From the NCBI GenBank assembly GCA_016179765.1, contig JACPCL010000036.1:134110-198109 (forward strand): 64,000 bases of DNA, given 5' to 3'. The notes under the pieces were generated by a model. That model was not told the DNA's origin, did not search any database, and saw nothing but the letters and a program-made list of their open reading frames with translations. A program made the position numbers and the translations under genes. Of this stretch, positions 1-50,619 are shown piece after piece; position 1 is the first letter of the stretch, and every line of letters begins with the position of its first letter. Source of the stretch: Chloroflexota bacterium (lineage in GTDB: Bacteria; Chloroflexota; Dehalococcoidia; Lucifugimonadales; JACPCL1).

Positions 1-774
1 AACGAAGTCATCGTTGAAACGAAAGGCCACGTAGCTATCATCACCATGAACCGCCCGGAGGCGCACAACGCCGTCAACGCGGAGGTGGGAGCTGGCCTGC
101 GCGCCGCCTTTCGCCAGTTCCGGGACGACCGTAACCTGCGCGCCGCCGTCCTGACCGGCGCGGGGGAGAAGGCCTTCACCGCCGGCGCCGACCTGAAGCG
201 CATGGCTCAGCGGGAGTCCGGCGACTTTGCCGACAGCTTCTGGTGGCCCAGCGGCGAATCGGGCTACGTGGAGGTGTGGAAGCCCGTCATCGCCGCCGTC
301 AACGGCTACTGCTACGCCGAAGGCCTGAACCTTCTGTGCGGCCTCACCGACATCCGTATCTCCTCCGACACCGCCACCTACTGCTACGCTGAGATTCTGC
401 GGGGTTTCAGCGGCACCGGCGTAGCCATTGAGCTGCTCCCCCGCCAGGTGCCCTACGCCAAGGCGATGGAGTGGCTTCTGATGGGCAAGGTGTTCAACGC
501 CCAGGAGGCGTACCAGGCGGGCCTGGTGAACGAGGTTGTCCCCCTGGCGAAGGTGAAGCAGCGCGCCGTGGAGATGGCCGAGCAGATCGCGGCCCTGGCG
601 CCCGTTGCGGTGCGCGCTCTGAAGGAGGCGGCGGTGCGCGGCCTCTCCCTGGATATCCCTAACGCTATGCGCCTGGCCAATACCATCGGCGTCCTCACCC
701 GTTATACGGAGGACGCCCGGGAAGGCCCGCGCGCCTTCGCTGAGAAGCGCCCGCCGGTGTACAAGGGACGATAG
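1..774 (+). CDS. enoyl-CoA hydratase/isomerase (crotonase) family protein, 5' end outside window
   Basis: Frame open from base 1 (NEVIVETKGHVAIITMNRPEAHNAVN...). Crotonase-type motifs GAGEKAFTAGADL and VIAAVNGYCYAEG. Track ORF 46..774 is the internal-Met version. Confidence 0.85.
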   Translation, partial: NEVIVETKGHVAIITMNRPEAHNAVNAEVGAGLRAAFRQFRDDRNLRAAVLTGAGEKAFTAGADLKRMAQRESGDFADSFWWPSGESGYVEVWKPVIAAVNGYCYAEGLNLLCGLTDIRISSDTATYCYAEILRGFSGTGVAIELLPRQVPYAKAMEWLLMGKVFNAQEAYQAGLVNEVVPLAKVKQRAVEMAEQIAALAPVAVRALKEAAVRGLSLDIPNAMRLANTIGVLTRYTEDAREGPRAFAEKRPPVYKGR

Positions 775-869
775 GGCAGATGGACATACGGACATAGGGG
801 AGACGGACGTCAGGAATCTTGCTTGTATGCGAGTATGTTCCTATGTCAGTTTTCCCACAGGAGGTAGCT

Positions 870-2838: not shown

Positions 2839-3147
2839 GTGATGCCCATGCAAGAGAGCTTAGAAAAAGGAAAACCCCAGGTAGAGGTCCGGTACTGTCT
2901 GGGCTGCGGCTATTTCCCCCAGGCGGCATGGATTGCTACGGAGTTTTGGTCCGAGTTCTCTGGCAACGTGGGCCTCACGCTCACCCCCGTAGAGGGTGGT
3001 CGGCTGGAAGTCCTGCTGGACGGTGCGGTGCTCTTTGACCGGTTGGCCCAGAATGGGGCCTTCCCCAACTGGAATGACCTTCGCGTTATGCGTCGTGCTA
3101 TCCGCAAGAAGCTGCCAGCCCCCAAGCTCCTTCAGCCCGTGGGCTAG
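2839..3147 (+). CDS. Rdx (SelW/SelT/SelH-like) thioredoxin-fold protein, Cys form
   Basis: About 100 aa with an N-terminal CxxC (VRYCLGCGY), typical of the Rdx family. No in-frame TGA. Start could be 2839, 2842 or 2848. Confidence 0.65.
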   Translation: MMPMQESLEKGKPQVEVRYCLGCGYFPQAAWIATEFWSEFSGNVGLTLTPVEGGRLEVLLDGAVLFDRLAQNGAFPNWNDLRVMRRAIRKKLPAPKLLQPVG

Positions 3148-3505: not shown

Positions 3506-5800
3506 GTGGTGCAATCGCAGACGTCTCTTGGCAAACGCGTGCGCAAGGCAGACGCCCTGGAGCGGGTGGTGGGCGAAGCTCGCTACAGCGCGGACTTCAG
3601 TCTGCCTGGGATGCTCTATGGCAAAATCCTACGCAGCCCTCATGCCCACGCCCGCATACGCCGCATAGACTACACCAAAGCCCTCCAGTTGCCCGGCGTC
3701 GTGTCCGTTATCACCGCTGGCGACTTCCGCTCCGGCCCCACGCAGCCCGCCGAGGTCCACGCTCCTGCTGGCACCTATGACCCGGGCCATGAGGAGGAGC
3801 ACGCCGCCGGCTCTCGTCCCAATGGCTCTCGAACCGTCTTCGCCGGGGCTAAGGCCCTGTGGGCCGGACAGCCGGTGGCCGCCGTGGCTGCCACCTCTCT
3901 TCAAGCCGCCGAGGAGGCCCTGGGCCTCATTGAGGTGAGCTACGAGGTCTTGAAGACCCTTGAGACGGCGGAGGAGGCCATGAAACCCGATGCTCCTCTG
4001 CTGCACCCCAACCTGTTCACCACCACACTGGGCAAGGCCGCCAGCAAGCCCAGCAACGTTGCCACCTACGTGGAGCTGGTCCGGGGCGACCTTGAGCGGG
4101 GCTTCAGAGAAGCAGATGTGGTCATAGAGGACACGTACCGCACCGGAATGGTGCACCAGGGCTACCTGGAGCCTCGCGCCACCCTGGCAAAGGCAGACCC
4201 CGATGGCAAAGTCACCATTTGGAGCAGTTCACAGGGCAGCTTCGGCGTCCAGCAGCAGGCCGCAGAGATCCTGAACCTGCCACTGGACAAGATCAACGTC
4301 ATACCCACGGAGATAGGCGGCGGCTTCGGCTCCAAGGGCCAGGGAGTGCTGGAGCCCATGGCGGCGCTCCTGGCCATCAAGACCGGCAGGTCAGTCAAGC
4401 TTGTCATGGGCCGGGACGAGGAGTTCAAGGCAGGCAGGCCAGGCGCTCCCTCCGTAATCTGGGTGAAGATGGGGGTGAAGCGGGACGGCACGATGACCGC
4501 TGGCCAGATGCGGGTGATCATAGACGGGGGCGCCTTCCCTGGGGGGCCTGTGGGCGCCGCCACAAACCTCGGTCTGGGGCCGTATAAGGTACCGAACCTG
4601 CGGGTGGAAGGGTACGATGTGGTCACGAGCAAGCCCTCGGTAGGGGCTTACCGAGCGCCTGGCGTGCCCCAGGCCGCCTTTGCAGTGGAGCAGCATGTGA
4701 ACCGCCTGGCCCAGGCTATTGGCATGGACCCCCTGGAGCTACGGCTGAAGAACATCACTGGCGAGGGCGACCGCCTCCCTAACGACGCCATTCTGCCTCG
4801 CGTTGGCTTCCGCACCACCCTGGAAACGGTGAAAAACCATCCCCTGTGGCAGAAGCGCCCCAACGGGCTTTTCCAGGGCCGGGGCATCGCCTGCGGCATG
4901 TGGCTGGGAGGCTTGCAGCCCAATAGTTGCTTCTTGAAGCTTAATGCCGATGGTTCCCTGGGCCTCATGGTGGGCACTGTAGACCTCACGGGCACTCGCA
5001 CCAGCTTCAAACAGATGGTGGCCAGCGAGTTCCAACTTTCCCCCGATGACGTAACCGTCACCACCCTGGACACCGATACCGCCCCCTACGCCTCCAACTC
5101 CGGCGGCAGCAAGACCACCTACACGATGGGGAACGCCATCAAGCAGGGGTGCGACAACATGAAGCGGCTCCTGCAAGAACGGGCGGCGGCCCTTTTGGAC
5201 CTGCCCAAGGACCAGGTGACTTACCGTGCCGGACTCTTCCACTCCATGCATGACCCCAGCCGAAGCGTCAGCCTGAAAGACTTGGGAACCCGCAGCCAGA
5301 CCACGGGCGGAGGCCCCCTGCTGGCCACAGGCTCCGCAGGCACCTTCCGGTCAGCTCCTTCCTTCGCCGCCCACGTGGTGGACGTGGAGGTAGACCCGGA
5401 GACGGGCAAGGTGACCATCCTGGGGTACTGGGCCTTCCAGGACTGTGGCTTTGCGGTCAACCCCACCCAGGTGGAGGGGCAAATGCAGGGCGGCGTCGCC
5501 CAGGGCGTCGGCTGGGCCTTGACCGAGGAGTACGTCTTTGCCAACGGCGTTATGCGCAACCCTACTTTCCTGGACTACCGCATGCCCACCTCCCTGGACT
5601 TGCCCCTCATTGAGCCTACCCTTGTGCAGGTGCCCAACCCGGAAAGCGCGTACGGCATCCGCGGGGTGGGTGAGGTGCCCATCGTGCCACCCATGGCGGC
5701 CATCGCCAACGCCGTCGCCGACGCCACGGGCGCCCGCATCACCGAGCTGCCCATGAGCCCGGAGCGGGTGTTTTGGGCAATACATAACAAGACAATGTGA
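3506..5800 (+). CDS. xanthine dehydrogenase/aldehyde oxidase/CoxL family molybdopterin-binding subunit
   Basis: 764 aa, GTG start after AAGGAGG. N-terminal a/b-hammerhead-type sequence (GKRVRKADALERVVGEARYSADF..GMLYGKILRSPHAHARI) and C-terminal GVGE motif. Confidence 0.85.
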   Translation: MVQSQTSLGKRVRKADALERVVGEARYSADFSLPGMLYGKILRSPHAHARIRRIDYTKALQLPGVVSVITAGDFRSGPTQPAEVHAPAGTYDPGHEEEHAAGSRPNGSRTVFAGAKALWAGQPVAAVAATSLQAAEEALGLIEVSYEVLKTLETAEEAMKPDAPLLHPNLFTTTLGKAASKPSNVATYVELVRGDLERGFREADVVIEDTYRTGMVHQGYLEPRATLAKADPDGKVTIWSSSQGSFGVQQQAAEILNLPLDKINVIPTEIGGGFGSKGQGVLEPMAALLAIKTGRSVKLVMGRDEEFKAGRPGAPSVIWVKMGVKRDGTMTAGQMRVIIDGGAFPGGPVGAATNLGLGPYKVPNLRVEGYDVVTSKPSVGAYRAPGVPQAAFAVEQHVNRLAQAIGMDPLELRLKNITGEGDRLPNDAILPRVGFRTTLETVKNHPLWQKRPNGLFQGRGIACGMWLGGLQPNSCFLKLNADGSLGLMVGTVDLTGTRTSFKQMVASEFQLSPDDVTVTTLDTDTAPYASNSGGSKTTYTMGNAIKQGCDNMKRLLQERAAALLDLPKDQVTYRAGLFHSMHDPSRSVSLKDLGTRSQTTGGGPLLATGSAGTFRSAPSFAAHVVDVEVDPETGKVTILGYWAFQDCGFAVNPTQVEGQMQGGVAQGVGWALTEEYVFANGVMRNPTFLDYRMPTSLDLPLIEPTLVQVPNPESAYGIRGVGEVPIVPPMAAIANAVADATGARITELPMSPERVFWAIHNKTM

Positions 5801-5837
5801 GAAGCAAAGCATACCGCCAGGAATCACCCAAATAGGC

Positions 5838-6542
5838 GTGATTCCTGGCGGAGTAACAAAAGCTCCGCAGACTCAACTTTCCTTAATGAGGTGCATCGTG
5901 CCGGCGAAAAAGGACGTGAAGAGGAATGTCAAACTTTCAAGAGAAGATCAAGAACAGATCCTACGGGTATTGCTGTTGAAATACCAAACCAACCCTAGGG
6001 CTGTCAAACAGTTGCTTCCCGAGGTTGCGGATATCCTTGTCAGCGTGGAGGGTAAACACATGCAAACTCCGGTTTCTCGCTTCTTTGAGCTCACTGGCAA
6101 GGAACAAGAAGAGAGAACGGAGGCTTATCTGTCAATTGTTAACCTGCTCAACATGCTAGGTAGAAAACTTCCGAGAGAAAAGGCCGTTGAGGCGCTTGAG
6201 AGCGCCGCTGCGTTGCAAGAGGCCTCTCTACAGGCTTCCATGGTGCTAGACGATGATGTTCTTCTAAGATTCGTGAGAATTGCCACGAGCTTGTCTCTGG
6301 AAAAGAAAGGGAGGCCAAAATCAAGCATTATTCGTGAAGGGGACATCAGTAGAACAGTCAGCCTGGTGCTTGGAATTAAAGCAAACCTTAGTTGTGACAA
6401 GCGCTTGCTTTCAATAGAGGTAGACCCGAAGGGGCTGGCAAAAGCGGCGAAGGCCTTTGCATTCCTAGGGGTTGGCAAGGACCCCAATCCTGACGTAGCT
6501 TTGCGTCACGATGAGTACGCCTTTGGGGATCCCCATGAGTGA
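5838..6542 (+). CDS. hypothetical protein, possible long partner (antitoxin-like) of the downstream PIN gene
   Basis: 234-aa ORF in a visibly AT-richer patch. Its stop TGA (6540-6542) overlaps the PIN ATG (6535) in ATGAGTGA. No family recognised. Start uncertain (5838, 5886 or 5899). Confidence 0.5.
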   Translation: MIPGGVTKAPQTQLSLMRCIVPAKKDVKRNVKLSREDQEQILRVLLLKYQTNPRAVKQLLPEVADILVSVEGKHMQTPVSRFFELTGKEQEERTEAYLSIVNLLNMLGRKLPREKAVEALESAAALQEASLQASMVLDDDVLLRFVRIATSLSLEKKGRPKSSIIREGDISRTVSLVLGIKANLSCDKRLLSIEVDPKGLAKAAKAFAFLGVGKDPNPDVALRHDEYAFGDPHE

Positions 6543-6936
6543 CACGGTGATAGTTGACACGTCCGCCTTCTATGCCATGACGGCTAGCGGTGACACGTTT
6601 CATGACAAGGCGATGGCGGTGTTTCGCCGCTTGGTCGGTAGCGAGTCTCGCCTTCTCACCAACTCCTACGTTCTGATTGAGAGCGCGAGCCTTATCCACC
6701 GGCGGTTGGGCTTTCAGGTGACGCAGGCCTTTATGGACTCGGTGATGGCAATTGTAGAGATTGTTTGGGTAGATGATTTGCTCCATCGCAAAGCCTGGGA
6801 TATAGTGTCGCGTCGCCAGGGTACACGCCTAACTCTTGTAGACGCCTCAGTCATGGCCTTAGCGCAGGACTTGAGCGCTATGGTGTTCTCTTATGATCAG
6901 GACTTTACCCAGGAGGGTCTAGTCGTAGTCGCCTAG
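6535..6936 (+). CDS. PIN domain (VapC-like) ribonuclease toxin
   Basis: MSDTVIVDTSAF... All four PIN acidic positions are present (VDTS, LIES, LVDAS, YDQDF). About 133 aa. Confidence 0.8.
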   Translation: MSDTVIVDTSAFYAMTASGDTFHDKAMAVFRRLVGSESRLLTNSYVLIESASLIHRRLGFQVTQAFMDSVMAIVEIVWVDDLLHRKAWDIVSRRQGTRLTLVDASVMALAQDLSAMVFSYDQDFTQEGLVVVA

Positions 6937-6971
6937 CATTCATCTGGTTTCATAACACCAAGGAGCGCCTG

Positions 6972-7661
6972 ATGCCCGATACCGTAACCACCGCCATGAT
7001 TGAGTTCAAGGCCAACGGCGGCGCCGCCCCTGGCTACCTGGCCTGGCCCAACCGCCGGGGACCAGTGCCCTGCATTGTCCTAATCCAGGAGTGGTGGGGA
7101 CTGGACGACCATATCAAGGAGGTCTCCCGCCGTTTTGCCGCCGAGGGGTATGCCGTCCTGGCCCCCGACCTCTTTCACGGCCAGGTCACCAGCGAGCCAT
7201 CCGAGGCCATGAAGCTGACCCAGGCCATGGACCGCGACCGGGCCATGAAGGAGTTGGGCGGCGCCGTCGCCTACCTCAAGAGCCAGCCCTTCTCTTCGGG
7301 CAAAGTGGGCGCCATCGGCTACTGCCTGGGCGGCGGCCTCTCCCTGTCCACCGCCTGCGCCAGCCGGGACGTGGACGCCTGCGTGGTTTACTACGGCGGT
7401 AATCCCAGCCCCGTTGACCTGGTGCGCAACCTGAATGGCCCCCTCCTGGGCATCTACGCCGAGCATGACGAGCGCGTCACCGCCGGGGTTCCCGCCCTGC
7501 GGGAGGCCCTGACCAGGGCTGGCAAGAGGTTTGAGACGCACGTCTACCCTGGCACCCAGCACGCCTTCTTCAACGACACCCGTCCCGAGATCCACAACGC
7601 CGCTGCCTCCCGGGACGCCTGGGCCAAGACCCTCGCCTTCTTTGCGGCCAACCTGAAATAG
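6972..7661 (+). CDS. dienelactone hydrolase family protein
   Basis: 229 aa alpha/beta-fold protein with the DLH-type pattern: VLIQEWWGL, GAIGYCLGGG nucleophile elbow, C-terminal HAF. Confidence 0.8.
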   Translation: MPDTVTTAMIEFKANGGAAPGYLAWPNRRGPVPCIVLIQEWWGLDDHIKEVSRRFAAEGYAVLAPDLFHGQVTSEPSEAMKLTQAMDRDRAMKELGGAVAYLKSQPFSSGKVGAIGYCLGGGLSLSTACASRDVDACVVYYGGNPSPVDLVRNLNGPLLGIYAEHDERVTAGVPALREALTRAGKRFETHVYPGTQHAFFNDTRPEIHNAAASRDAWAKTLAFFAANLK

Positions 7662-8340: not shown

Positions 8341-9840
8341 ATGGGTGGGGCGGCGGCGTGGGCCTTGGATGGCGTCGTATCCCGAGAGTCATCTTACTGC
8401 AAGGGCTGCCGGATGGTAGTGAGAAGGGTAATGGGCGTTGCCCCGCTTCGCCTGGCGCTGGGGATGCTCTCCGCCGTAGCTGTGGCCCTGGGAGTCATTG
8501 GCGCAACCCACGGGCGCGATGAGCATGTGCTTCTCCTGCGGGTCAACGGCGTCATCAATGGCGTCACCGATGGTTACGTTGCCCGTGGCATCAGGGCGGC
8601 AGAGGAGGAAGGGGCGAGGCTGATTATCATTGAATTGGACACCCCTGGGGGGCTTCTGGACGCCACCAGGAAGATAACGGAGCGCCTGTTGGATTCCCCT
8701 GTCCCCGTGGTGGTGTACGTCACTCCGTCCGGGGCGAGGGCCGCCTCGGCGGGGGCGTTCATTACCGCCTCTGCTACCTTTGCCGTCATGGCGCCGGGGA
8801 CCAACATTGGCGCTGCCAGCCCCGTAGGCGGCGGCGGTGAAGACCTGCCTGAAACGCTGAAGTCCAAGGCGTTCAACGATGCCGCCGCTGAGATGCGGAG
8901 CATAGCTGACCTGCGAGGCCGGAACAGGGAAAAGCTGGAGGCCATGGTGACTCAGGCTATCTCCCTCACTGCCGAGGAGGCCCTGGCCTCAAATGTCGTG
9001 GATTTCGTCGCGACCGACAGTGGCGAGCTTCTGGGAAAACTCAACGGGCGGGAAGCGGTCATCCGGCCACCGGGCGGCCGACGGATAACGCTGGATACGC
9101 AGGGGCTGGTGCTGCGCCCCATGGACATGAGCCTGGTGGAGCGGTTCCTGCGGTTCATTGCTGACCCGAACGTGAGCTTCCTGCTTCTTTCGCTGGGCGG
9201 TTTGGGCCTTATGGTGGAGCTGTTGAATCCTGGATTGATCTTGCCGGGGGTGGTGGGAGCAATCCTGGTGGTGCTTGCCTTTCTTGCCCTGGGTAACCTT
9301 CCCGTGAACTGGGCGGGTGTGGTGCTCATCTTGCTCGCCGTGGTCTTGGCGGTGCTGGAGTTCTACGTGGCAGGCTTTGGCGTCCTGGGCGTTGGAGCCA
9401 TGGTGAGCTTCGCGCTAGGCGCCTTTCTCCTTTTCTATCACACAGGTGGGCCGTCACCTACCATGCCCCGCATCGGCATCAGCCTGTGGATTCTGACCCC
9501 TTCGGTGGTTCTCTTGGGCGGCGGAGGCGCTTGGGTGCTCTCCACTATCGTCCGGTCCAGGAAGGAGGCCCCGGAGGAGGGGGTCTCACGCCTGGTTGGC
9601 GCAACAGGCTACGCGGTGACGGAGCTAGCGCCCAGGGGCGTGGTGCAGGTAGGGAGCGAGCAGTGGAGCGCCGTTACAGGGACTGGACAGAGCATTGCAG
9701 CGGGCCAAGGGGTTCGCGTAACCCAGGTGAGAGGGGCAATCATGCTGGTGGCGCCAGCAGAGGCGCCACCAGCAGGTGCGGTGTCCAGGGAGCCCGGTGA
9801 CCATGGCGGAGAGCGATCCGATCCCGTTCCAGGAGGTTGA
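8341..9840 (+). CDS. NfeD family membrane-bound ClpP-class serine protease
   Basis: Signal/TM region, ClpP-like domain (IIIELDTPGGL, ARAASAGAFI), several TM helices and a C-terminal NfeD OB-like domain. Directly precedes the SPFH gene. True start may be 8431 (MGVAPLRLAL...). Confidence 0.8.
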   Translation: MGGAAAWALDGVVSRESSYCKGCRMVVRRVMGVAPLRLALGMLSAVAVALGVIGATHGRDEHVLLLRVNGVINGVTDGYVARGIRAAEEEGARLIIIELDTPGGLLDATRKITERLLDSPVPVVVYVTPSGARAASAGAFITASATFAVMAPGTNIGAASPVGGGGEDLPETLKSKAFNDAAAEMRSIADLRGRNREKLEAMVTQAISLTAEEALASNVVDFVATDSGELLGKLNGREAVIRPPGGRRITLDTQGLVLRPMDMSLVERFLRFIADPNVSFLLLSLGGLGLMVELLNPGLILPGVVGAILVVLAFLALGNLPVNWAGVVLILLAVVLAVLEFYVAGFGVLGVGAMVSFALGAFLLFYHTGGPSPTMPRIGISLWILTPSVVLLGGGGAWVLSTIVRSRKEAPEEGVSRLVGATGYAVTELAPRGVVQVGSEQWSAVTGTGQSIAAGQGVRVTQVRGAIMLVAPAEAPPAGAVSREPGDHGGERSDPVPGG

Positions 9841-45167: not shown

Positions 45168-46028
45168 TCAGAACTCCACGGGGCGGAAGTTGAGCCTGCC
45201 CTTGCGCTTTTCCAGGTAGCCCGCTCTGGTTTCCAGGCCATGGCAGAAGACGATAAGCCAGCCACACTTCTCCGCCTCGTACACCAGGTCCTTCTTGATG
45301 GCAAGGGTGTCCTCTGGAAAGGTATCTGTGGAGGAGATGCACGCCATTCCCAGGTGGTGGTGGGTGGGAATCAGGTCTCCCAGGAAGGCGACGCGTTCGC
45401 CGCCGTGGTTCACCAGCACCATCTGATGGCCGTTGCAATGGCCCCCTGTGAGGCGGACGCGGGTCCCCGGCGCCACTTCGGCGTCGCCGTCCAGGAGGGT
45501 GATCTGGCTGCGTTCCTTCAGCGGCAGGAAGTCCTCCTGCCGGTAGAGATCGCAGGCGCGCTCGTTGGGGCTGGCGGCCTCCTCCCAGGCCTTGCGCTGA
45601 ATGAAGTAGGTGGCGTTGGGGAAGGTGGGCACCGCCTCTCCAGAGCGGTCCAGACGGGTGCAGCCGCCGGAGTGCTCCTGGTGGAGATGGGTGAGCACCA
45701 CGGCGGTGACGTCCCGTGGGGTCAGGCCCATGGCGCGAAGGCTCTTCATCAGGTTGCTGCGGGTAAGCCCGAAACGTTCCTTGGTCTGCTCTGGATCCTT
45801 ATTGCCCAGGCCTGCGTCCACCAGGACGCAGCTATCGCCATTCTTGATGACGAGGCAATTGAGCCCCAGGCTGACGCGGTTTCTACGGTCAGGGGCCGCC
45901 AACTGCTCCCAAGCGGACTTGGGAAGCTGGCCAAACATAGCGCCGCCGTCGGTCTTGATGGTGCCATCGCTGACAAGGGACAGGGTGGTAGCGGAGGGTT
46001 TCATGTTCTGATACCCCTTTTGCAACAA
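45168..46028 (-). CDS. MBL-fold metallo-hydrolase (lactonase-like)
   Basis: LTHLHQEHSGG variant of HxHxDH, plus downstream His ligands. Start may be 46004. Confidence 0.75.
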   Translation of the reverse strand: MLQKGYQNMKPSATTLSLVSDGTIKTDGGAMFGQLPKSAWEQLAAPDRRNRVSLGLNCLVIKNGDSCVLVDAGLGNKDPEQTKERFGLTRSNLMKSLRAMGLTPRDVTAVVLTHLHQEHSGGCTRLDRSGEAVPTFPNATYFIQRKAWEEAASPNERACDLYRQEDFLPLKERSQITLLDGDAEVAPGTRVRLTGGHCNGHQMVLVNHGGERVAFLGDLIPTHHHLGMACISSTDTFPEDTLAIKKDLVYEAEKCGWLIVFCHGLETRAGYLEKRKGRLNFRPVEF

Positions 46029-46526: not shown

Positions 46527-47357
46527 ATGACGACTCGGGCCCCTGCTGACCGCTACTTCCGCTCTGATACCTTGAGGATGCACTACCTGGACTGGGGCAA
46601 CGAGGGGGCCACCCCGCTGGTCCTTCTCCATCACATCAGCAGCAACGCCCATACCTGGGACCACTTTGCCCGCAACGTGTGCGACCGCTACCGAGTCCTG
46701 GCGCTGGATATGCGCGGCCACGGCGACAGCGACTGGGCGGGGGAAGGGAAGTATACCACGGAGCATTACGCCGCGGACGTGGCGGCCCTTGTGGACCATC
46801 TGGGGCTGCGCAGGGTCATTCTCCTGGGCGGCTCCACGGGCGGCCGCGTGGCGCTCGTCTCCGCCGCCCAGCATCCGGAACACACGGCGGCCCTTATCAT
46901 GGAAGACGTGGGCGCGGTGCGCCCTGCCTCCATCTCCCGGGGCTTCGCCGATCGCGTTGCTGGGGGTGATCCTCAGTTTGACACCCTAGATGAGTGGGCG
47001 AAGAGCCTCCAGGGGCAGAACCAGCGCACTCCCGCCCAGTATTTCCTGGACCTGGCGCGCTATGGCACCAAGCGGCTCCCCAACGGCAAGCTTGGCCTGA
47101 AACGGGACGTCGCCATCCAGCGGGACTTTGTGCCCCTGGAGCTGTGGCACTACGTGGAGAGAGTGAAGGCCCCCTTCCTTCTTTTGGTGGGCACCGAAAG
47201 TGAAATCGTGGGTCAGGACCAGCAGACTCGCTTCAAGCAGATACGGCCCGATGTTGAGATCGTCACCGTGCCGGGCGCAGGGCACATCATCGTCCACGAC
47301 AAGCCCCAGGAGTTTGAACGCCTGGTGGTGGACTTCCTCAAGAGACACGGGGTGTAA
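46527..47357 (+). CDS. alpha/beta hydrolase
   Basis: HHISSN oxyanion region, nucleophile elbow GGSTGG, C-terminal GHII. Confidence 0.8.
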   Translation: MTTRAPADRYFRSDTLRMHYLDWGNEGATPLVLLHHISSNAHTWDHFARNVCDRYRVLALDMRGHGDSDWAGEGKYTTEHYAADVAALVDHLGLRRVILLGGSTGGRVALVSAAQHPEHTAALIMEDVGAVRPASISRGFADRVAGGDPQFDTLDEWAKSLQGQNQRTPAQYFLDLARYGTKRLPNGKLGLKRDVAIQRDFVPLELWHYVERVKAPFLLLVGTESEIVGQDQQTRFKQIRPDVEIVTVPGAGHIIVHDKPQEFERLVVDFLKRHGV

Positions 47358-47379: not shown

Positions 47380-48015
47380 CTATGACGTTAGCTCCTTGAA
47401 GACCCTGTGCCAGACATCACCGCCCTTCACCCCATACCCTTCCCTGAACGTAATGACCCCTGCCCTGTTGACCGCCACCTTGGTGGACTGGATAGTGATG
47501 TTGTAGGCTGGCAACATCCCGCTGGGTGCAACCGCCACAGGCCAGGGGTAGCCTTGGGCCTTCTTATAAGCCACGAGCACTCCCTTGTCCTCAAAGGGGT
47601 CAATGCCGATGGCGATAAAGGCGACCCCGTCCTCATACTGGGGATATATCTCTTTCAGCGACCGTAACTCGGCGCAGCAGGTGGGTCACCACGTCGTGAA
47701 AAAGTACAGCACCACTGGCCTGCCCTGGTCGCGCAGGGAAACCAGGCTCACCGTCTGGCCCGTGTCCAGTTCCAAGGTGAAGTCTGGAGCAGTGTTGCCT
47801 GGCTTGGGACCGACGGGTGGCAGCGGCGTTAAGGTGGGTGTGGGCGCGGCGCTCGGCGGGGTGGCACTGGCGATGGCGGCATCCGGTGTGGTTGCTCCTG
47901 CCCTAGCAGGAGGAGTTGGCGTGAGCGCTCCCACCTGGGGAGCGGCCTGGGGTGCGCCGCAGGCAAGCAGCAGCGCCCCTCCAAGCCAGAGGAGGGTTAT
48001 TGCTGCCCGTTTCAT
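47380..48015 (-). CDS. TlpA/ResA-like thiol:disulfide oxidoreductase lipoprotein with in-frame TGA (candidate selenocysteine, W-U-P-T-C)
   Basis: Track ORFs 47686..48120 and 47380..47580 are in the same frame, and the frame is open between them except for TGA at 47686-47688. The reading is ...VVLYFFTTW-TGA-PTCCAELRSL... Lipobox signal peptide MKRAAITLLWLGGALLLAC. Confidence 0.65.
47658..47675 (-). other. candidate bacterial SECIS hairpin
   Basis: RNA GCGCCG-AGUUA-CGG(U)CGC starts 10 nt after the UGA. The apical loop contains GU at about +18 from the UGA. Confidence 0.4.
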
Positions 48016-48251
48016 CGGCTTCAACACACTCTCCTCATCGCTGGCCGTCATGTATGAACTACGGCTGGCTAGGGGGGGCGGATGCATCCACGCCATCCTT
48101 TGCCGCCATAAGCGTATCATACCCCTAAGGTGAGGCTATGGTGTCCACCCGCGGCACCGGGACTGCGGGGTATCTAGCAGGTTGATGGATGCAAACCATT
48201 TCGTGTAATATGAGTCGCACCATAGCCTGAACGGAGGAGGGGTGGCGGGAA

Positions 48252-48578
48252 ATGACGAACAAACCAGCAAGAGCCGAAAAGCACTGGACCTTCTTCACCA
48301 ATCACGGGATGGTCTTCTTCCACATCCTGCAGCACCCAGGCGATACCATCCGTCGCATCGCCAATCACCTGGGGCTGGCGGAGCGCACCGTAGCCGGCAT
48401 CCTCCACGACCTGCGGGAGGACGGCTACGTGTCGGTGATGAAGGAGGGACGCCGCAACCGGTACGTGGTGAGGCCGGATTTGCCCATGCGCCACCATTCC
48501 CTCACTGAGTTTTCAGTGGAGGACTTCTTCTTTGAGCCCACGCCCGATGGGGATGACCGCACCCGCGCCGCCGACTAG
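48252..48578 (+). CDS. winged-helix (MarR/ArsR-like) transcriptional regulator
   Basis: 108 aa. HTH TIRRIANHLGLAERTVAGILHDLREDGYV followed by a wing. Divergent from the redoxin gene. Confidence 0.65.
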   Translation: MTNKPARAEKHWTFFTNHGMVFFHILQHPGDTIRRIANHLGLAERTVAGILHDLREDGYVSVMKEGRRNRYVVRPDLPMRHHSLTEFSVEDFFFEPTPDGDDRTRAAD

Positions 48579-48665: not shown

Positions 48666-49399
<734 letters not shown>

Positions 49400-49548: not shown

Positions 49549-50619
49549 ATGGCCATCCAAACGCCAACAACTCCCATGCATCACCCCAACCTGGTGGACG
49601 GCACACGGCGGCATATCCTTGACCTGGACGACTTCTCCCCGGAGGAGATAGAGCTGGTGATGGCCACCACTGACGCCATGGGCGAGGTGCTGGGCCGGGA
49701 GATCAAAAAGGTGCCAACGCTGCGGGGCAAGGTCATCGTCACCCTGTTTTACGAGGCCAGCACCCGCACCCGCGTCTCCTTTGAGGAGGCGGGCAAACTC
49801 CTCAGCGCCGACGTCATCAACGTCTCCTCCTCCGGCAGCAGCGTGGAGAAGGGGGAGTCGCTGCTGAACACGGTACGCACCCTTCAAGCCACGGGGGCCG
49901 ACCTGATCGTCGTGCGCCACCCGCACTCCGGCGCGCCCTACTTCATGGCCCGCAACCTTGAGCGCACCAGCGTCATCAACGGCGGCGACGGCTGGCACGC
50001 CCACCCCAGCCAGGCGCTGCTGGACCTGTACACCATCCGCCAGCACAGGGGCAGCATCAGCGGCGCAAAGGTGGTCATCGTCGGCGATATCCTGCATTCG
50101 CGAGTAGCCCGCTCCAACCTGTGGGGCCTGACCGCCGCAGGTGCTCATGTGGTGCTGTGCGCGCCGCCCACCCTCCTCCCCCAGGAGTTCCTGGACGGGA
50201 GCTACAGGGAGGATCCTGACTCGTCGGGACTGGCCTCGGTGGAGGTGACTTTCAACGTGGAGGAGGCCATCCAGGATGCCGACGTGGTGATGCCCCTGCG
50301 CCTCCAGCTTGAGCGCCAGCAGGCGGGCCTTTTGCCCACATTGCGAGAGTACTCCAAGATGTACCAGGTGGACGAGCGGCGGCTGAAGCTGGCCAGGCCC
50401 GGCGCCCTGGTGCTGCACCCCGGCCCCATGAACGAGGGGATAGAGATCAGCCCCCAGGTGGCCCACGGGGCGCAGTCCCTCATAGAGGAGCAGGTGCACA
50501 ACGGCGTGGCCGTACGCATGGCGCTGCTGTATCTGCTCGTGGCCAACAAAGAGGGACCGCCGTCAACTGCGCAAGACACTCCATCGGGTGAGTTGCCCAG
50601 ACGGATTAGGTTTCTGTAA
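49549..50619 (+). CDS. pyrB: aspartate carbamoyltransferase catalytic subunit
   Basis: STRTR, HP.Q and HPGP motifs. C-terminal extension of roughly 30 aa beyond typical length. Confidence 0.9.
   Translation: MAIQTPTTPMHHPNLVDGTRRHILDLDDFSPEEIELVMATTDAMGEVLGREIKKVPTLRGKVIVTLFYEASTRTRVSFEEAGKLLSADVINVSSSGSSVEKGESLLNTVRTLQATGADLIVVRHPHSGAPYFMARNLERTSVINGGDGWHAHPSQALLDLYTIRQHRGSISGAKVVIVGDILHSRVARSNLWGLTAAGAHVVLCAPPTLLPQEFLDGSYREDPDSSGLASVEVTFNVEEAIQDADVVMPLRLQLERQQAGLLPTLREYSKMYQVDERRLKLARPGALVLHPGPMNEGIEISPQVAHGAQSLIEEQVHNGVAVRMALLYLLVANKEGPPSTAQDTPSGELPRRIRFL

Follow-up and report, generated by a model that had tools for sequence, protein, structure and literature searches.

A probable selenocysteine codon, an in-frame TGA, at the active site of a predicted lipid-anchored TlpA/ResA-like redoxin of Dehalococcoidia

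Does a TGA codon in the middle of an otherwise open frame of a Chloroflexota bacterium (class Dehalococcoidia) end a gene, break it, or encode selenocysteine (Sec)? The question arises in the 64-kb stretch of contig JACPCL010000036.1 analyzed here as a whole (hereafter the window), on the minus strand of which two open reading frames (ORFs), 47686..48120 and 47380..47580, share one frame and are separated by a single stop, the TGA at 47688-47686. Read through this codon, the putative coding sequence 47380..48015 is open from the ATG at 48015 to a TAG at 47382-47380 and gives a product of 211 amino acids, ...GRPVVLYFFTTW-[TGA]-PTCCAELRSLKEIYPQYEDGVAFIAIGIDPF..., with the proposed Sec at residue 110 (codon 47686..47688). 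An alternative in-frame start, TTG 48024, lies 6 nt after a GGAG (48034-48031) that is better placed for it than for ATG 48015. A sequence-only reading of the window had proposed this two-ORF arrangement, a thioredoxin-fold redoxin of the TlpA/ResA type as the read-through product, and a candidate selenoprotein; sequence, ORFs, and translation confirmed the first, Pfam the second, and the third is supported by a TGA, a downstream frame, and a hairpin that are all conserved in many genomes.

The part of the product from about residue 69 to residue 211 (47383..47811) is a thioredoxin-fold, TlpA/ResA-like redoxin domain by its Pfam, NCBIfam, and Protein Data Bank (PDB) matches. AhpC-TSA (PF00578) and Redoxin (PF08534) scored 58.1 and 51.1 bits against cut-offs of 26 and 26.6, respectively, and the best PDB matches were 2ls5 (TlpA-like, 3e-13) and ResA 3c71 (9e-10). 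In the PDB alignments with ResA, DsbE, StoA, and 2ls5, the TGA column coincides with the first Cys of W-C-x-x-C, and four Cys-containing homologs likewise have the first CxxC Cys in this column (P0003, WCPTC; P0005, WCPVC; P0006, WCPAC; P0009, WCGPC), as had been expected from the sequence; a Cys paralog was also found in the related locus L035. The active site is W-U110-P-T-C113, followed by C114, so that the resolving Cys113 (TGC 47679-47677) and the extra Cys114 (TGC 47676-47674) together occupy 47674..47679. Cys114 is replaced by Arg (CGN) in most orthologs: column 13 of the alignment is C in more than 90% of the sequences and T in the window. The ortholog in L001 (88% identical) has Arg (CGC) at this position, a single C-to-T difference located just outside the hairpin stem described below. 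The best NCBIfam matches were all under their cut-offs (ResA, 46.1 vs. 170 bits; StoA, 37.8 vs. 210; DsbE, 36.3 vs. 359), and scores this far below the equivalog cut-offs rule out an ortholog of ResA, DsbE (CcmG), or StoA. A peroxiredoxin (Prx/BCP) was also rejected: against the motif PxxxTxxC(U), the context L-Y-F-F-T-T-W-U-P-T-C has Thr at -3 and no Pro at -7, the BCP score was 20 bits against a cut-off of 140, and the motif is instead UxxC, as in disulfide reductases.

Gene callers cut this gene into two meaningless fragments, and its closest entries in NCBI/ENA are all truncated at the TGA: P0001 (88% identity), P0002 (71%), and P0011 stop exactly at ...YFFTTW, while P0004 is a fragment lying between two TGAs. 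Such split calls, and the fact that a single base change turns TGC or TGT into TGA, would suit a pseudogene or a sequencing or assembly error, with only a truncated, non-functional protein being made. In the window and the DNA of four related loci (L001-L004), however, TGA stood at the homologous codon in 8 of 8 sites, and the redoxin frame ran on past each of them. Two of these loci, L001 and L002, are in synteny with the window and carry collinear orthologs, with pyrR-pyrB on one side and genes for an alpha/beta hydrolase and a metallo-beta-lactamase (MBL)-fold protein on the other; L001 shares 85-97% protein identity with the window across 16 kb. We also searched 185,579 species-representative genomes for a degenerate DNA pattern of approximately 40 bits (V-V-x-Y-F-F-x-x-x-TGA-Pro-x-Cys), for which we estimated about one match by chance. 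The scan returned 53 stretches with approximately 70 real sites in 44 genomes, namely 37 metagenome-assembled genomes (MAGs) of Dehalococcoidia/Chloroflexota, many of them complete long-read chromosomes, 6 of Planctomycetota, and 1 Desulfosarcina MAG. Two matches (Mucilaginibacter and Roseburia) were chance-like; in the remainder, a homologous open frame of at least 100 codons follows the TGA unless the locus ends first. The same pattern gave 28 further real sites in metagenome contigs. The assemblies carrying the TGA are independent, coming from JGI, Logan, ENA, and NCBI, and some of them are complete chromosomes built from long reads. Because the same TGA occurs in the syntenic L001 and L002 and at the approximately 70 sites in 44 genomes, ahead of a frame under selection, we exclude both a sequencing error and a nonsense mutation private to this genome, and give a broken gene of any kind next to no credence.

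Selection on the downstream frame was estimated from the ratio of nonsynonymous to synonymous substitution rates (dN/dS; Nei-Gojobori) between the window and six relatives. Over the 100 codons that follow the TGA the ratio was 0.18-0.26; over the 45 codons that precede it, the ratio was 0.06-0.30 where computable. The two parts are thus under similar purifying selection. This pattern indicates that translation continues in frame beyond the TGA, and it would not be expected of a pseudogene or of a 3' part left untranslated; the downstream frame is moreover intact, and a conserved, covarying hairpin, which a broken gene would not explain, follows the TGA. These data also bear on a scheme with two products, in which translation would end at the UGA to leave a lipid-anchored linker with half a domain, and the 3' part would be untranslated or made separately from GTG 47580. 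In the ORF lists and in public gene calls the gene does appear in two parts, and some termination at the UGA is to be expected from inefficient Sec insertion. However, the split would fall inside the active-site motif, neither half is a complete thioredoxin fold, the protein sequence of the 35 codons from the TGA to GTG 47580 (PTCCAELRSLKEIYPQYEDGVAFIAIGIDPFEDKG) is conserved throughout the family, and the Cys-form homologs are single polypeptides. We therefore consider two separate products highly improbable.

If the UGA is read through, which amino acid is inserted? Sequence data reveal read-through and not the identity of the residue, and the UGA might be decoded as something other than Sec, either in a reassigned code (Trp or Gly) or by a near-cognate tRNA or a Cys-charged tRNA(Sec) inserting Trp or Cys in programmed read-through stimulated by the hairpin. 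The failure to find SelB, SelD, and tRNA-Sec in the window or the related loci searched, detailed below, would fit such decoding. Against it, TGA terminates 20 of the 54 predicted genes of the window (a gene set based on G + C content at third codon positions, GC3), including those read as IleRS and LysRS. TGA is hence an ordinary stop here, and reassignment of the code is excluded. Furthermore, the codon occupies the column of the redox-active Cys, the hallmark of Sec/Cys pairs, the hairpin fits the model of a SelB-dependent Sec insertion sequence (SECIS), and SelA is encoded in genomes that carry orthologs, twice within approximately 4 kb of them. On balance, insertion of another residue appears improbable.

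The SelA evidence came from tblastn searches with E. coli SelA, SelB, and SelD as probes, of which only SelA matched, in three related loci (L033, L024, and L058) and not in the window. SelA has no known role besides making Sec-tRNA(Sec). L033 (chromosome OZ220698.1) contains a full-length selA at 5623-6981 (-), approximately 4 kb from the redoxin ortholog (TIGR00474, 572 bits; cut-off, 268), and L024 a partial selA at 14-829 (+), also approximately 4 kb from the Sec-redoxin gene. When the SelA of L033 was used as a query, matches were obtained on contigs of 2,373,081, 2,006,147, 2,186,624, and 2,400,261 bp, sizes equal to those of four redoxin-carrying chromosomes; the presence of SelA and the redoxin on the same chromosome was confirmed directly for the 2,400,261 bp one. 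selB was not next to selA in the three Dehalococcoidia contigs inspected. Split genes near selA in L058 were considered as further selenoproteins and rejected, as TAG stops or frameshifts, and not an in-frame TGA, interrupt them. A crude scan of the window for other in-frame-TGA candidates gave only adjacent genes sharing a frame; its GC3 filter also missed the redoxin, so the scan was not exhaustive. A high selenoprotein content is on record for this class: two MAGs of Dehalococcoidia rank among the ten bacteria richest in selenoproteins in BSepDB, with 49 and 46 of them (PMC13326102). From the relatives and from the intact, selected gene, we infer that the source organism has the Sec machinery.

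Is there also a signal for Sec insertion in the mRNA? A SECIS-like hairpin, GCGCCG-AGUUA-CGGUCGC (47658..47675, minus strand), consists of a 5' arm at 47675-47670, a loop at 47669-47665, and a 3' arm at 47664-47658 with one bulged U. It begins 10 nt past the UGA, its loop is separated from the UGA by 16 nt, and it is present in both the minimum free energy (MFE) and the centroid folds. Zhang and Gladyshev reportedly described a consensus model of the bacterial SECIS element in 2005. The bacterial SECIS (bSECIS) model has a loop of 3-9 nt, an upper stem of 4-16 bp, a G in the first two loop positions, usually with G or U next, a spacing of 16-37 nt from the UGA, and an MFE of -7.5 kcal/mol or lower (PMC13188914). 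The window element agrees with it throughout (loop of 5 nt, stem of 6 bp, G-U at loop positions 2-3, spacing of 16 nt, and -7.7 kcal/mol for a 31-nt segment), which bears out the hairpin and the spacing that the sequence-only reading had pointed to. No SECIS family was found with Rfam, either in a gathering-threshold scan of the whole window or in a permissive scan of 47550-47750; these scans returned only two tRNAs, a PyrR site, and one chance REN-SRE match.

The hairpin is more telling in comparison. In a gap-free alignment (A1) of 53 distinct Dehalococcoidia-type sequences, the four upper pairs were paired in all 212 of 212 cells, although the bases themselves varied: pair 16-28 occurs in five types (UA 24, AU 11, GU 9, GC 5, and UG 4), pair 18-26 in two (CG 36 and UA 17), and pair 19-25 in three. 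The covariation score was 0.403, against 0.146 in shuffles, none of 500 of which reached it, and 0.03-0.24 in slid registers. A stem of at least 6 bp was present in 53/53, as a continuous helix in 27 and with a one-nucleotide bulge of the 3' arm in 26, the window among the latter. U22 and U23 of the loop are invariant, the loops being AGUUA (21), AGUUG (18), AUUUG (8), AGUUU (3), and CGUUG (3). The pairs are kept through coordinated amino acid changes, for example Ala...Arg-Ser (GCC...CGG-UCG), Thr...Arg-Leu (ACC...CGG-UUG), and Ser...Gln-Thr (UCU...CAG-ACC), and the hairpin is absent from the equivalent place in the 3 Cys-form homologs examined. One of these hairpin-less homologs (L090) encodes a similar peptide, WCPTCRNDLKNLK. 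The short SECIS-like element is thus embedded in codons for C-R-x-E-L-R/Q-x-L, two positions of which change together while the base pairs are kept, and it shows, in a clean natural case, how an RNA structure can constrain a protein sequence.

Several observations weigh against reading the TGA as a Sec codon. The hairpin is short and passes the bSECIS model only marginally, its spacing being at the minimum and its energy barely beyond -7.5 kcal/mol, and by itself it was no more stable than shuffled sequence (z = -0.09); because its stability is at chance level, the evidence for it is comparative and not thermodynamic. As it lies within coding sequence, correlated amino acid preferences could account for some of the covariation, and the AUUUG loop (8/53, in paralogs) has no G in its first two positions and fails the G rule of the bSECIS model. 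Neither selA, selB, selD, nor tRNA-Sec was found within the 64-kb window; ARAGORN found no tRNA-Sec in the window and 63 related loci, and tblastn with the E. coli queries found no SelB or SelD in the related loci. The search for the Sec machinery that the sequence-only reading had suggested thus succeeded for SelA, on ortholog-carrying chromosomes of relatives, and failed for SelB, SelD, and tRNA-Sec. Finally, by sequence alignment the cis-Pro of ResA ('PTT') corresponds to Ser in the window protein (Q-S-T-K, approximately 47475-47464, minus strand), and its chemistry may therefore differ from that of ResA/TlpA; Ser also occurs at this position in the closest relatives, whereas Pro is found in many of the paralogs (QPSK, QPTK) and Ala in others (HASA). 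Taking these points together with the conserved TGA, the selected downstream frame, and the covarying hairpin, we put the probability that TGA 47688-47686 truly encodes Sec and that its gene (48015..47380, minus strand) is functional at roughly 90%, judged from sequence comparison. Since gene callers truncate at the TGA, re-annotation is needed for the window gene and for dozens of its Dehalococcoidia orthologs.

How would such a gene be expressed, and where would its product act? Judged from the comparative data and from how bacteria are known to decode Sec, UGA 47688-47686 would be read as Sec, and the hairpin at 47675-47658 (loop AGUUA) would act as the SECIS, bringing in SelB-GTP-Sec-tRNA(Sec) when the UGA occupies the ribosomal A site. 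The N-terminus has a predicted lipoprotein signal peptide, MKRAAITLLWLGGALLL-A-C (47959..48015), whose lipobox Cys19 has the codon 47961-47959, followed by a low-complexity linker rich in Pro, Thr, and Ala (approximately residues 20-68; 47812..47958) that would join the lipid anchor to the redoxin domain. Both features had been seen in the sequence-only reading and are present. The product would be exported through the protein-translocating Sec translocon, cleaved and lipidated at Cys19, and held at the outer face of the membrane by the Pro/Thr linker, so that a location tethered outside the cytoplasmic membrane is predicted. A lipobox-type signal peptide is found upstream of 58 of the 72 family sites; the sites without one are mostly cut by the locus end, are fused second domains, or are of the Planctomycetota type. 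The linker varies among orthologs, with approximately 60-200 residues from the lipobox Cys to the Sec, and the related chromosome L058 encodes a signal peptidase II (Peptidase_A8). The view that an exported lipoprotein form is unusual was an overstatement, as the lipoprotein and extracellular selenoproteins SaoX, SaoB, and SaoC have been described (bioRxiv 10.1101/2022.07.06.499078).

By homology to the CxxC of ResA, TlpA, CcmG, and StoA, the selenol/thiol pair of U110-P-T-C113 would carry out thiol-disulfide (selenenylsulfide) exchange, a selenol of low pKa substituting for the nucleophilic Cys. Re-reduction would probably depend on a membrane electron carrier of the CcdA/DsbD type; no ccdA or cytochrome c maturation genes are adjacent to the gene in the window. 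Candidate substrates include apocytochrome c, assembly factors of copper centers, oxidized exported proteins, and peroxides.

The family also varies in copy number and architecture. The Sec-redoxin gene occurs in tandem in many Dehalococcoidia MAGs, with two copies mostly about 900 bp apart (L005, L007, L009, L011, L012, L019, L022, L028, L030, L035, L047, L055, and L062); L003 has three tandem copies, at 9726, 10568, and 11563. In L004 (9980 and 10655; the same contig as L046), a single ORF encodes two fused redoxin domains and contains two in-frame TGAs, which predicts a protein with two Sec residues. The DNA pattern also matched two other UxxC redoxin subfamilies, in which the downstream RNA is unlike the Dehalococcoidia hairpin: a Planctomycetota/soil subfamily ('FFEE[TG]-U-P-x-C') with a C-terminal extension of approximately 265 residues, and a Desulfobacterota subfamily ('FFQDW-U-P-G-C'). 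Loci of these two subfamilies are L027, L031, L034, L038, L050, L057, L064-L068, L071-L073, L077, and L087; and L051, L059, L061, L076, L081, and L086.

Could the Dehalococcoidia clade then have a function other than the classical disulfide reduction of ResA/TlpA? It would form a functionally distinct, lineage-specific group of lipid-anchored extracytoplasmic selenoproteins, with up to three tandem copies, two-Sec fusions, and a cis-Pro apparently lost in many members, the window protein among them. We regard this idea as doubtful. Possible alternative roles would be selenol-based handling of metals or chalcogens, or the reduction of peroxides or disulfides at the surface of monoderm Chloroflexota. 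If the clade is distinct, it would add a large, surface-exposed share to the selenium demand of bacteria abundant in marine, sponge-associated, and groundwater habitats. As predicted, the family would place a selenol on the outer side of the cytoplasmic membrane in a widespread, mostly uncultured class, which bears on the selenium requirement of Dehalococcoidia and on redox maintenance outside the cytoplasm.

The surroundings of the gene contain several further features. Divergent from it, at 48252-48578 (+), lies a gene for a 108-aa protein that looks by eye like a winged-helix DNA-binding protein, has no recorded Pfam match, and is found at the same position in L001 and L002 with 92-95% identity; it could be a regulator of the selenoprotein gene. 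A PyrR-binding attenuator RNA (Rfam; 48681-48803, +; 57.4 bits, gathering threshold 54) directly precedes a pyrimidine operon (pyrR, pyrB, dihydroorotase, and carA; 48803-49399, 49549-50619), which is also divergent from the selenoprotein gene. On the other side, the alpha/beta hydrolase gene (46527-47357, +) is convergent with it, and the MBL-fold gene is located at 45168-46028 (-). Both genes also have counterparts next to the Sec-redoxin genes of distant MAGs of Dehalococcoidia: the hydrolase in L041 and L017, with 68-72% identity, and the MBL-fold gene in L025, L026, L028, L037, and L049, with approximately 59-61%. Far from this locus, the Cys-form SelW-like gene that had been noted at 2839-3147 (+) was verified as encoding a SelT/SelW/SelH (Rdx) protein with CLGC (TIGR02174, 38 bits; cut-off, 34.2); with the model of the Campylobacter-type (seleno)protein, NF041051, it gave 47 bits, under the cut-off of 88.

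How does the predicted protein compare with known systems? A 'Prx-like thiol:disulfide oxidoreductase' selenoprotein family is said to have been described by Kryukov and Gladyshev in 2004. UxxC selenoproteins of this fold are established high-confidence predictions, both as the 'Prx-like thiol:disulfide oxidoreductase' (PF00578) and as the 'Thiol:disulfide interchange protein' (PF13098) (PMC1794560, PMC13188914). The former, which belongs to PF00578 and carries UxxC or UxxU (Zhang et al. 2006, PMC1794560; Table 1, PMC13188914), resembles the window protein in having an AhpC-TSA/Redoxin domain, Sec as the first residue of UxxC, and Cys homologs, in its prediction from an in-frame UGA with a bacterial SECIS, and in its inferred thiol-disulfide exchange. 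Compared by description, these proteins are known mainly from Deltaproteobacteria (Geobacter, Syntrophus, and Desulfotalea), whereas the window clade belongs to Dehalococcoidia/Chloroflexota, combines a lipoprotein signal with a Pro/Thr linker, and frequently occurs in tandem or fused form. With the UxxC TlpA-like selenoproteins it shares the TlpA-like thioredoxin fold, the UxxC motif, and a predicted extracytoplasmic redox role, although PF13098 (Thioredoxin_2) is weak on the window protein (17.3 bits; cut-off, 27).

Among Cys-based proteins, ResA and StoA of Bacillus, CcmG/DsbE, and TlpA are similar in the W-C-x-x-C context, in membrane tethering outside the cytoplasm, and in domain size; the window protein differs in having a predicted Sec for the nucleophilic Cys, a lipid anchor in place of a transmembrane helix, and a Ser that aligns with the conserved cis-Pro. 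The hairpin, in turn, is like the E. coli fdhF-type SECIS, being a stem-loop within the coding region directly 3' of the UGA with a small apical loop, G-U at positions 2-3, and a one-nucleotide stem bulge; it differs in being very short (6 bp) and in having the bulge on the 3' arm. The gene therefore belongs to an already known kind of bacterial selenoprotein, one that is common in genomes of Dehalococcoidia, and opens no new class of system. What is specific to it is the Dehalococcoidia clade, the lipid anchor with its linker, the tandem and fused multi-Sec forms of its relatives, and the compact SECIS-like element.

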